From Candidatus Nomurabacteria bacterium (GTDB lineage: Bacteria; Patescibacteriota; Minisyncoccia; Phycocordibacterales; CAIJYI01), in NCBI GenBank assembly GCA_943356445.1, contig CALREZ010000001.1, positions 15,818-79,817 on the forward strand: 64,000 bases of DNA, in the 5' to 3' direction. The position numbers and the translations under genes were made by a program. The notes under the pieces were generated by a model. That model worked only from the letters and a program-made list of their open reading frames with translations, ran no database searches and was not told where the DNA came from. Positions 51,331 through 53,362 of the stretch are shown here, one piece after another; the first letter of the stretch is position 1; each line of letters begins with the position of its first letter.

Positions 51331-51358
51331 TTGACACTGAAATGCTTTTGCGTATAAT
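51331..51358 (+). promoter_or_regulatory. sigma70-type consensus promoter upstream of the 16S rRNA gene
   Basis: TTGACA (51331..51336), 16-nt spacer, TATAAT (51353..51358), about 210 nt upstream of the 16S 5' end. Confidence 0.55.
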
Positions 51359-51566
51359 AGAGGTTACGCTCATTGAAAAAGCGCCTTTATTTTGAAAGGC
51401 CACATACAAGTACAAATGCAACACAAATCGCAATTGATAAAAGTATCAGTTGCGCGTGCTAATAGAATTTTGCAAGAATTCGTTAGACGTAATTACGAGA
51501 ACAAAAGACCAAATAGCACAGCGATGCAAATTGGATTTTCTTTTGTTTCACTCTTGTCTTTTTTTT

Positions 51567-53050
51567 AGAGTTTGATCCTAGCTCAGGATGAACGCTGGCG
51601 ACGTGGATAAGGCATGCAAGTCGAATGGGTTTAGACCCATGGCGAACGAGGTAGTAACGCGTAGGTACGAACCGAGAAGTCAGGGATAATCCGTCGAAAG
51701 ACGGGATAATACTTGATGGTCCCTTCGGGGTAAAGATTTATCGCTTCTTGATCGGCCTGCGTAGTATCAGCTAGTTGGTAGTGTAATGGACTACCAAGGC
51801 TATGACGCTTAGGGGAGCTGAGAGGCTGACCCCCACCGATGGCACTGAGATACGGGCCATACACCTACGGGTGGCTGCAGCCGAGAATATTCCACAATGG
51901 GCGAAAGCCTGATGGAGCGACGTCGCGTGATTGATGAAGTTCTTCGGAATGTAAAGATCTTTTATGAGGGAGAAATTTTATTGATAGTACCTCATGAATA
52001 AGGGGTTGCTAAACTCGTGCCAGCAGCAGCGGTAATACGAGTACCCCGAGCGTTATCCGGAATTATTGGGCGTAAAGGGCGCGTAGGCGGTCATGTTAGT
52101 CTTTTGTTAAATGCTCCGGCTTAACCGGAGCTCTGCGAAAGATACGGCATGACTTGACGATGCGAGAGGTGTGCGGAACTCATGGTGTAGGGGTGAAATC
52201 CGTTGATATCATGGGGAACACCAAAGGCGAAGGCAGCACACTGGCGTATTCGTGACGCTGAGGCGCGAAAGCGTGGGGATCGAACGGGATTAGATACCCC
52301 GGTAGTCCACGCCCTAAACGATGATCTCTAGTTTTTCGGAGTATCGACCCTCTGGGAGACGAAGCTAACGCGTTAAGAGATCCGCCTGGGGAGTACGGCC
52401 GCAAGGCTAAAACTCAAAGGAATAGACGGGGACTTGCACAAGCGGTGGATCATGTGGTTTAATTCGTCGATAAACGAAAAACCTCACCAGGGCTTGAAGC
52501 TCATACGAAGACCCGGAGAAACTCGGGTCGTCTCACAAGGACGGATGAGCAGGTGCTGCATGGTCGTCGTCAGTTCGTGGTTTGAATTGTTCCCTTAAGT
52601 GGGGTAACGAACGCAACCCCCATTGCCTGTTAGAAATGTCAGGCGAGACAGCCCCGTGAAATGATCGGATCTCTTCGGAGATGTTATTATTTCACGGGGA
52701 GGAAGGTGGGGATGACGCCAGATCAGCATGGCCCTTTGATGCCCTGGGCTACACACGTGATACAATGGTTACTACAACAGGTTGCGACGGGGAAACCCTG
52801 AGCTAATCCTCCAAAAGTAGCCCCAGTTCGGATAGAGGTCTGCAACTCGACCTCTTGAAGTTGGAATCGCTAGTAATCGCGGGTCAGCTATACCGCGGTG
52901 AATACGTTCTCAAGTCTTGTACTCACCGCCCGTCACGTCAAGGGAGCCGGGAGTACCCGATGATCCGACATTGTCGGATTTAAGGTAAGTTCGGTAACAG
53001 GGACGAAGTCGTAACAAGGCACGGCTAGCGGAAGCTGGTCGTGGAACAAT
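51567..53050 (+). rRNA. rrs: 16S ribosomal RNA
   Basis: Starts with AGAGTTTGATCCTAGCTCAG. Contains GTGCCAGCAGCAGCGGTAATAC (515 region with one C>A change), ATTAGATACCCCGGTAGTCC and GTCGTAACAAGG, plus a helix-45-like hairpin CACGGCTAGC-GGAA-GCTGGTCGTG near the 3' end. About 1.48 kb. Confidence 0.9.
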
Positions 53051-53362
53051 TTCATTTTATTGCGATCATCTTGTTTTCTTCGGAAAACAAAGATTGATTC
53101 GAAATGGCGATTGCTCAACCTAGTTGAGTAAGGCAATGGTTTTCTTGCCTTTAAATAAAAACCCCTTCAGCTTCTTTTGGTTAAAGAAGCAAACCCATAA
53201 AGAAAGAGTGAAACAAAAGAAAGTTAAATTTGCTTTCTGACTCTCGTATTTTGTGAAGCATTGCAAAATTAACCCGCATGATCTGCGGTTTTTTTTGTGC
53301 ATATGCAAAAGGTATCTCCTCACGCTATTTAAAAAATGGCTTGACTGTGTATTTTTTTTGTC

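Follow-up and report, generated by a model that had tools for sequence, protein, structure and literature searches.

The 64,000-nucleotide stretch of contig CALREZ010000001.1 analysed here (the window) carries a 16S rRNA gene that has lost the anti-Shine-Dalgarno (anti-SD) sequence from its 3′ end. Very probably, the gene is functional and stand-alone, and belongs to a member of the Parcubacteria (Paceibacteria) that is close to the Yonath-, Taylor- and Nomurabacteria and translates its mRNAs independently of Shine-Dalgarno (SD) motifs. A covariance-model search of the window recovers the gene with Rfam RF00177 as a match that is not truncated, against a gathering score of 50 (Table 1). When the 3′ part was aligned anew to the covariance model, the tail fell on model positions 1521-1533 and read GAACAAUUUCAUU where GAUCACCUCCUUA is expected. 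Specifically, consensus GGAUCACCUCCUUu is aligned with GGAACAAUUUCAUU in the window, UUUCA at 53050-53054 occupies the CCUCC positions, and GAUCA (53044-53048) is changed to GAACA. The helix 45 that precedes this tail has 10 of 10 standard pairs, and its stems covary among relatives. A first-pass annotation, made from the letters of the window, had claimed that the CCUCC tail is missing after helix 45, and the model places GAACAAUUUCAUU at 53044-53056 accordingly; the nearest resemblance to a normal tail that it had pointed to further downstream is present as GATCATCTTGTT at 53064-53075. Neither CCTCC nor even CTCC occurs in 53040-53300, which spans helix 45 to the terminator. The covariance-model check for an intact anti-SD downstream thus found none in the transcript, and the reading of a lost tail stands. 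With the CCUCC core decayed to UUUCA, this ribosome has no means of forming an SD helix. The mature end of the tail, placed by homology, would lie at about 53056.

The 16S gene forms a unit of its own with its own terminator, and does not lie in an operon with spacer tRNAs and a 23S gene. Its promoter at 51331-51358 is the sole 12/12 sigma-70 consensus within the 20 kb scanned (44-64 kb). RNAcofold and duplexfold pair the leader (51519-51561) with the trailer (53199-53239) through approximately 40 nearly continuous pairs, with the top duplex joining 51409-51562 to 53198-53300 at -74 kcal/mol; the resulting helix presumably brackets the 16S for processing, and the GAGTGAAACAAAAGAAAG block of its 3′ strand is kept in two metagenome relatives (L178 and L229). 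The Rfam search gives no large-subunit rRNA match in the 64-kb window, and no match in the 340-nt gap 3′ of the terminator (53240-53660). The rRNA genes are also unlinked in relatives (L217, L175, L194 and L019), one of which, L217, has a 23S-5S pair 6 kb upstream of its 16S. The tRNA-Ile(GAU) gene, whose usual place is the 16S-23S spacer, lies here 5.3 kb 3′ of the 16S, behind five protein genes. Additionally, in a relative from the Taylorbacteria (L092, 6440-6518), a group II intron domain match (RF01998, 39.6 bits) follows the 16S at a distance of about 190 nt.

Because rRNA genes in metagenomes are often broken or misassembled, an assembly or sequencing artefact, or a chimeric contig, has to be weighed against this reading. 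Three assemblies, which come from two samples (L001, L002 and L008), show 100% identity over the rRNA region, 2010 nt from promoter to terminator. The window is contained in a 116-kb metagenome contig (ENA ERZ27280322), and the locus was also assembled from a second sample, partly by Logan; the two ENA assemblies agree over the full 2010 nt, and the flanking genes are common to the Logan assembly. The same tail (GAACAATTTCATTTTAT) and trailer blocks occur on Joint Genome Institute (JGI) metagenome contigs from other samples (L141, L178 and L229), so that GAACAAUUUCAUU is identical in all six sequences, and the trait is clade-wide. Identity across assemblies and independent metagenomes therefore shows that the tail is not an assembly error, and we regard the chance of an artefact as negligible.

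The loss of CCUCC extends well beyond the window. A genome scan with one genome per species and the variant 515 site of the window as query returned 120 loci, mostly from Patescibacteria, among which the nearest 16S sequences (79-86% identity) belong to Candidatus Yonathbacteria (L115), Taylorbacteria (L092, L019 and L010) and Nomurabacteria (L017). The CCUCC tail is absent in all nine nearest genome contigs with a readable 3′ end, and their tails read GAUUAUUUCAA, GAAUAUUUCAA or GAAUCAUUCAA; GATCACCTCCTTTCTAGGGAG is retained in 51 Parcubacteria that share the 515 variant but are less closely related. A metagenome scan with the helix 45 variant of the clade returned 120 further contigs, none of which carries a CCUCC tail, the commonest tails being GATTAATTCCAATTGGA (27 contigs) and GAATAATTCAATTTGAA (16 contigs). 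As close relatives and metagenome contigs all lack CCUCC, it follows that the ancestor of a sizeable clade had already lost it, and the comparison with tails of related candidate phyla radiation (CPR) genomes that the first-pass annotation had proposed comes out in favour of its claim. GAUCA, which the KH domain of Era contacts, is degenerate in the clade as well (GAACA in the window, GAUUA or GAAUA in relatives) and intact in the CCUCC-retaining Parcubacteria. The replacement is non-random, with a persisting x-U-C-x core.

The genome has been seen only in part, and a second 16S gene with a normal CCUCC tail could reside elsewhere in it, in which case the window would hold a paralogue that is specialised or in decay, and a canonical ribosome would read the minority of AGGAG-bearing genes described below. 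Such an arrangement would account for a residual SD-like class that is both enriched and conserved, and Alteromonas does retain two tail types (PMC6107228). The gene in the window, however, has a promoter that fits the consensus perfectly, together with a processing helix and a terminator; its model match is full-length and high-scoring, its pairs are compensated, and a CCUCC tail is found in none of approximately 130 clade contigs with this helix 45 variant or a closely related 16S. A single rRNA set is, moreover, usual in CPR genomes. A second, canonical 16S gene is therefore very unlikely in our estimate.

Between the tail and the processing helix lies a structured trailer, and the first-pass annotation had considered that a terminal insertion might hide the true 16S 3′ end. 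Comparison with three close relatives reveals that the trailer diverges far faster than the 16S body: hairpin sequences are replaced and pairing is kept, with the pairing of hairpins 2 and 3 preserved through six double changes. The blocks that stay constant in the three relatives are UCGAAAUGGCGAU, a C-rich ACCCC, which in the window is part of the block ACCCCUUC at 53161-53168, and the processing strand GAGUGAAACAAAAGAAAG. Additionally, GAAAU at 53101-53105 is complementary to AUUUC of the tail (53049-53053). By this comparison, the stretch of about 140 nt past the tail appears to evolve like a transcribed spacer, unlike mature rRNA. A hidden 3′ end finds no support in this fast-evolving structured spacer without CCUCC.

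A related possibility is that the mature 16S does run past 53056, with an inserted structured segment that splits helix 45 from a displaced anti-SD-like tract such as ACCCCUUC. The processing helix begins 140 nt past the tail, yet directly adjoins the 16S 5′ end; the C-rich block is conserved in L141, L178 and L229; and the regions upstream of genes pair with this block better than shuffled sequences, with P=0.02 for the share of genes that reach -5 kcal/mol or less. However, this pairing is weaker than that for a canonical anti-SD and no better than inside coding sequence, and hence reflects a shared purine tract. The wholesale swapping of hairpins in a trailer that evolves much faster than the 16S body, the short and different trailers of other clade members, which lack such a C-rich block, and the lack of CTCC anywhere in the 16S transcript also speak against it. 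With a signal this weak and non-specific, the C-rich block is unsupported as a displaced anti-SD, and a mature 16S extending into the trailer is improbable to a high degree. As a displaced tail, GAUCAUCUUGUU at 53064-53075 was likewise rejected: it gives no complementarity signal, and in relatives it corresponds to the variable stem of trailer hairpin 1.

Pairing between the tail and the beginning of the spacer is seen in CCUCC-bearing relatives (CUCCUU-UCU-AGGGAG). This tail-spacer mini-hairpin has at least 4 Watson-Crick pairs in all 23 unique CCUCC-bearing sequences, versus 13% with a shuffled trailer, and is still found in 56% of 101 unique anti-SD-less sequences, versus 25% with a shuffled trailer. 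Its two arms covary (UUCA/UGAA, UUCC/GGAA, CUCA/UGAG, UCCA/UGGA, UUUC/GAAA and UGUC/GACG). In the lineage of the window, a hairpin has been inserted between AUUUC of the tail and its complement GAAAU. Taken together, these patterns suggest, with moderate confidence, that a precursor hairpin including the tail is still under selection, and its function may be 3′ end maturation.

In agreement with a 16S that lacks the anti-SD, the mRNAs make little use of SD motifs. The gene set comprises 79 genes over approximately 80 kb (window and flanks), with the calls attached to the public contigs, and about 90% of these genes have no SD. AGGAG is found at -20..-4 in 6 genes and GGAG or GAGG in 8, and any of GGAG, GAGG or AGGA in 10% of genes versus 57% in E. 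coli; across the 79 start regions there is no G peak near -10. The mean minimum duplex energy with CACCUCCUUU is -2.14 kcal/mol upstream of starts versus -3.07 inside coding sequence, whereas the same script gives -5.92 and -3.16, respectively, for 42 annotated E. coli genes. Duplexes at or below -4.5 are found upstream in 23% of genes and inside coding sequence in 25%, as compared with 64% and 29% in E. coli. Thus, the earlier observation that most genes lack SD motifs is borne out by motif counts and by a duplex energy at background level; the SD-usage check proposed with it, run on the 79 genes of this contig, shows that usage is not normal. Additionally, the regions upstream of starts are 40-50% A, the folding energy over 40 nt is -2.0 kcal/mol at the start versus -5.4 in gene bodies, ATG is the start codon in 75 of 79 genes, and the second codon is AAA in 22. 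With cruder start calls (first ATG of open reading frames (ORFs) of at least 150 amino acids; GGAG or GAGG at -18..-4), SD use amounts to 27% in E. coli, 10.6% in CCUCC-retaining Parcubacteria (179 ORFs), 7.1% in anti-SD-less ones (56 ORFs) and 8% in the window, and it seems to be low across the group, even where CCUCC survives. In the 79 start regions, A is commonest at -13, -6 and -3 and T at -1, with hardly any G at -1 and -2. The pattern recalls the Kozak-like one reported for Bacteroidetes, with a sample of 79 too small for certainty.

A new pairing could in principle have replaced the old one, with the UUUCA of the new tail matched by a UGAAA element upstream of starts. TGAAA does occur in -25..-1 of 12 of the 79 genes versus 4.3 expected, and AUUUCA-like tails are conserved in the clade. 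However, the distance from TGAAA to the start varies over 2-25 nt without a preference, and several of the sites are alternative ATGAAA starts. Pairing to the actual tail is not enriched either, since 8.9% of genes reach -4.5 kcal/mol or below versus 10.5% in shuffles, and no such matching pair is known from any anti-SD-less organism according to Lim 2012 and Amin 2018 (PMC6107228). We therefore reject a co-evolved UGAAA-UUUCA pair, the k-mer being enriched without a spacing preference or a duplex-energy signal, and consider its existence hardly credible. One further recurrence was seen in these regions: the motif AATTCTAA stands just before the ATG at 47886, 41645, 40182 and 34299 (AATTCT in 7 of the 79 genes versus 1.2 expected), mostly at junctions after MBOAT-type paralogues, and includes the upstream stop codon.

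A small class of genes does carry SD-like sites. AGGAG at SD spacing precedes 6 of 79 genes here, when about 1 is expected (P ~0.001), and 14 of 315 ORFs (4.4%) on contigs with an anti-SD-less 16S, versus 1.9% of internal ATGs and 1.2% in shuffles. Two of these sites, before the ankyrin-repeat gene and rocD, had been noticed earlier and are confirmed at 59033-59038 and 59574-59581. The site upstream of rocD is conserved in three orthologues: two with 78% protein identity and the same ankyrin-rocD synteny (L251 and L252) have AAGGAGGGGAA-ATG at the inner start, and the third (L253, 65% identity) has GAAGGAGAAAAGT-ATG. No pyrimidine partner for AGGAG was found in the 16S transcript. The first-pass annotation had taken these genes at 59-60 kb as a hint of a different origin, which is not supported. 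The SD-bearing genes are not clearly deviant in GC, GC3 or codon-usage distance, the rocD site is conserved in relatives, and the homologues, which are metagenome proteins at 65-79% identity, at least one with the same ankyrin-rocD synteny, followed by Paceibacterota, Elusimicrobia and Bacillales at about 60%, give no evidence of recent transfer. The AGGAG class as a whole could possibly be explained by transfer relics from SD-using bacteria, by a second rRNA gene, or by a purine-tract effect that is independent of the anti-SD. That the sites, two- to fourfold enriched across anti-SD-less contigs, are functional although the only detectable 16S has no CCUCC is a doubtful proposition.

Regarding the 5′ ends of the mRNAs, the three TATAAT boxes that had been placed before the coiled-coil, acpS and glycosyltransferase genes are exact in position and end 6, 6 and 11 nt before the ATG, respectively. 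Nine of ten perfect TATAAT boxes within 60 nt upstream of genes sit 3-17 nt from the start: they end 3, 3, 6, 8, 11, 11, 13, 16 and 17 nt before called starts, and for the tenth the distance is 6 nt once the start is corrected to 54130. The -10-like k-mers ATAAT, CTATAA, TACTAT and GGTATA are also enriched in -25..-1. A spacing of 5-9 nt, which is predictive of truly leaderless mRNA, is found in only 3-5 genes, and promoters of at least 10/12 ending no more than 20 nt from the start precede only 3 genes, versus 0.45 in shuffles. When a -35 box is required, only four promoter-like sites are left before genes; with so few survivors, a strict promoter model cannot carry the leaderless claim. The suggestion of a leaderless-prone regime is thus plausible in view of the enrichment of TATAAT within 17 nt of starts, but it rests on sequence proxies, and the diagnostic 5-9 nt spacing is limited to those 3-5 genes. 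Leaders are probably very short for many operon-first genes and absent for a few. The best candidate for a leaderless mRNA is that of the coiled-coil gene with its ATG at 54130. The public gene call starts this gene at 54058, atop the terminator hairpin (54060-54083) of the preceding gene; an 11/12 promoter before 54130 and a called start lying on a terminator hairpin therefore indicate that the start chosen in the first-pass annotation is right, and the promoter-proximal ATG at 54130 is the likely start of the gene.

Taken together, covariance model, relatives and E. coli-calibrated SD statistics agree with the proposal that an SD-independent translation regime goes with the anti-SD-less 16S. 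In the mechanism that we propose, the 16S would be transcribed alone, from its consensus promoter to its own terminator, with the leader-trailer helix of about 40 bp serving in processing, and CCUCC would have decayed to UUUCA and GAUCA to GAACA in the common ancestor of the clade. The mRNAs would match this ribosome, with approximately nine in ten genes lacking an SD, A/U-rich and minimally structured start regions, AUG as nearly the sole start codon, and -10 boxes so near the starts that leaders would be absent or a few nucleotides long. Starts would be selected as accessible AUGs, through leaderless 5′-end entry or through loading on an unstructured A-rich leader, and 16S-mRNA pairing would play no part. 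Era reads GAUCA together with CCUCC (GAUCACCUCC), and most CPR bacteria are reported to lack era (PMC10582724). The decay of the tail probably reflects relaxed selection, as both of its readers, SD motifs and Era, would be weak or gone, with C-to-U drift as the simplest account.

Several observations weigh against this reading. The AGGAG class is enriched at proper spacing and its rocD site is conserved, neither of which a purely SD-free model predicts. A structured trailer of about 140 nt separates the homology-placed tail end from the processing helix. Few -10 boxes have a good -35 partner, so that neither the promoter calls nor the case for leaderless mRNAs is firm. For the CCUCC-retaining relatives, the low SD use comes from crude start calls on genes sampled beside rRNA loci. 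Finally, the analysis covers approximately 80 kb of one contig, leaving room for a second rRNA copy in the genome.

The loss of the anti-SD in Parcubacteria was already published in 2022, and the general pattern is already in Lim 2012 and Amin 2018. Tsurumaki, Saito, Tomita and Kanai (RNA 2022; PMC9297842), in the part of their report drawn on here, detected the CCTCCT motif in only 48% of Parcubacteria, found that the motif-less lineages overlap the group lacking uL1, and presumed that SD helices are not formed. The bacterium of the window is the same as that Parcubacteria subgroup in lineage, in the absent CCTCCT at the 16S 3′ end and in the inferred lack of an SD helix; the replacement tail, the SD statistics of the mRNAs and the operon anatomy given here go beyond the detection rate and uL1 overlap in that part of the report. 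No ribosomal protein genes lie on the approximately 80 kb examined. Organisms without an anti-SD also lack SD motifs (PMC6107228; PMC10783764), and anti-SD-less, SD-scarce bacteria are known among Flavobacteriia (Chryseobacterium, Elizabethkingia, Riemerella and Blattabacterium), Mycoplasma and Carsonella (Lim 2012; Amin 2018, PMC6107228; category iv in PMC10783764). Every testable feature of that category is found in the window: it shares with these bacteria a 13-nt tail without CCUCC, no SD enrichment, no variant SD matching the tail, and a loss clustered in related lineages. Unlike these bacteria, which belong to other phyla, it has a small but significant AGGAG class and -10 boxes unusually near the starts.

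Two other kinds of system offer partial parallels. Work by Baez in 2019 and Jha in 2021 reportedly describes a Bacteroidetes ribosome whose anti-SD is occluded, along with leaders that are A-rich and Kozak-like. The bacterium of the window resembles the Bacteroidetes in largely SD-independent initiation, A-rich unstructured leaders and SD-like sites on few genes; however, the Bacteroidetes keep CCUCC and hide it with proteins, whereas the 16S of the window has lost it outright. Leaderless-rich systems (Actinobacteria, Deinococcus, many archaea and mammalian mitochondria) are similar in the dominance of AUG, in some -10 boxes about 6-8 nt from the AUG and in not relying on SD motifs, but most -10 boxes here predict leaders of 4-10 nt, as far as promoter sequences tell. 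The mammalian mitochondrial small-subunit rRNA also lacks an anti-SD (PMC10582724).

Two further departures from a standard 16S were seen. The 515F primer site at 52017-52035 reads GTGCCAGCAGCAGCGGTAA, with a C-to-A change at 52028, so that the single mismatch noted at this site is real. We take 52028 to be E. coli C526 and 52007 to be E. coli G505, from the known 505-507/524-526 pseudoknot of the 530 loop. Of the 120 genome loci that carry A526, 107 also carry U505, and in one relative the pair is C505/G526. The mismatched base is one side of a compensated pseudoknot pair and not damage. An expansion of about 25 nt, also noted earlier, does exist in the form of the helix 40 hairpin, but its size is approximately 34 nt. 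The covariance model shows a 37-nt insert there, and the inter-anchor interval is 81 nt in the window; most relatives have 47 nt, many have 76-91 nt, and others reach 126-224 nt. Inserts of unrelated sequence are found at this place in the clade (for example in L092, L068, L114 and L243), and helix 40 is a length hot spot of the clade.

Table 1. Features of the 16S transcription unit and of neighbouring start regions, in window coordinates
Feature	Position	Strand	Detail
TATAAT (564..569) ending 11 nt before GT4 glycosyltransferase ATG 581	564..583	+	predicts a leader of ~4 nt
TATAAT (36548..36553) ending 6 nt before acpS ATG 36560	36548..36562	+	Pfam ACPS
16S promoter, sigma-70-type, TTGACA-16 nt-TATAAT	51331..51358	+	12/12 consensus match
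Putative leader-trailer processing helix, 5′ strand, adjoining 16S 5′ end	51519..51561	+	RNAcofold, duplexfold
16S rRNA gene, full length	51560..53056	+	Rfam RF00177, 1383.5 bits, model positions 1-1533
530-loop pseudoknot pair U505-A526	T 52007, A 52028	+	A is the 515F mismatch
Extended helix 40 hairpin, 48 nt	52652..52699	+	34 nt beyond the basal clade form (14 nt)
Helix 45, GGAA loop, CACGGCTAGC-GGAA-GCTGGTCGTG	53020..53043	+	covariance model
13-nt 3′ tail GAACAAUUUCAUU	53044..53056	+	covariance-model alignment
Structured 3′ trailer, three to four hairpins	53057..53198	+	
Putative leader-trailer processing helix, 3′ strand	53199..53239	+	paired with 51519-51561
Intrinsic terminator closing the 16S unit, CCGCATGATCTGCGG then T8	53274..53296	+	
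TTGACG-17 nt-TATAAT promoter, -10 box (54118..54123) ending 6 nt before ATG 54130	54095..54132	+	11/12 consensus
tRNA-Ile(GAU)	58347..58419	+	only other RNA gene in the window
SD-like AAGGAG, 6 nt before ankyrin-repeat gene	59033..59038	+	
SD-like AAAGGAGG, 6 nt before rocD	59574..59581	+	

Apart from the rRNA region, about 50 kb of the window (1-51154) is one continuous surface-glycan cluster, a large investment for a small CPR genome. It holds many GT4 and GT2 glycosyltransferases, methyltransferases, two MBOAT pairs, a Wzy_C-TPR protein, a Wzm/Wzt ABC exporter, NeuB, a CMP-sugar synthetase and an ACP/acpS/KR/dehydratase set. One ORF inside it (9479-9901) has Pfam matches to 23S_rRNA_IVP and bAvd, a four-helix-bundle family, with no rRNA intervening sequence nearby. 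Upstream of the window (L004, 1644-3988), genes for a TraG/VirD4-type coupling protein and a PemK toxin adjoin the cluster, which hints at a mobile-element remnant. The coiled-coil gene contains a 42-nt tandem repeat (54436-54571; 3.2 copies, 97% matches), of which the window has two extra copies (84 nt) relative to the otherwise near-identical L001 and L002.

The value of the locus is that of a worked example, in which the anti-SD has been replaced by tails of the GA(A/U)(U/A)AUUUCA type, the Era-binding GAUCA has been degraded too, and the neighbouring mRNAs have given up SD pairing with no new complementary pair evolved. For genome analysis, SD-rewarding gene callers will put starts at the wrong place in such genomes, as in the case of 54058 versus 54130; 515F-type primers miss the clade because of the compensated pseudoknot pair; and synteny cannot link 16S with 23S when these genomes are binned. 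The conserved AGGAG residue is the only part that could lead somewhere new. If these sites are functional, their purine tract would be read by something other than a classical anti-SD, for which a protein, a displaced pyrimidine tract on a 3′-extended 16S and a second, specialised rRNA would be the candidates, and they would then mark a class of genes whose expression is controlled separately, in a bacterium that otherwise does without SD motifs.

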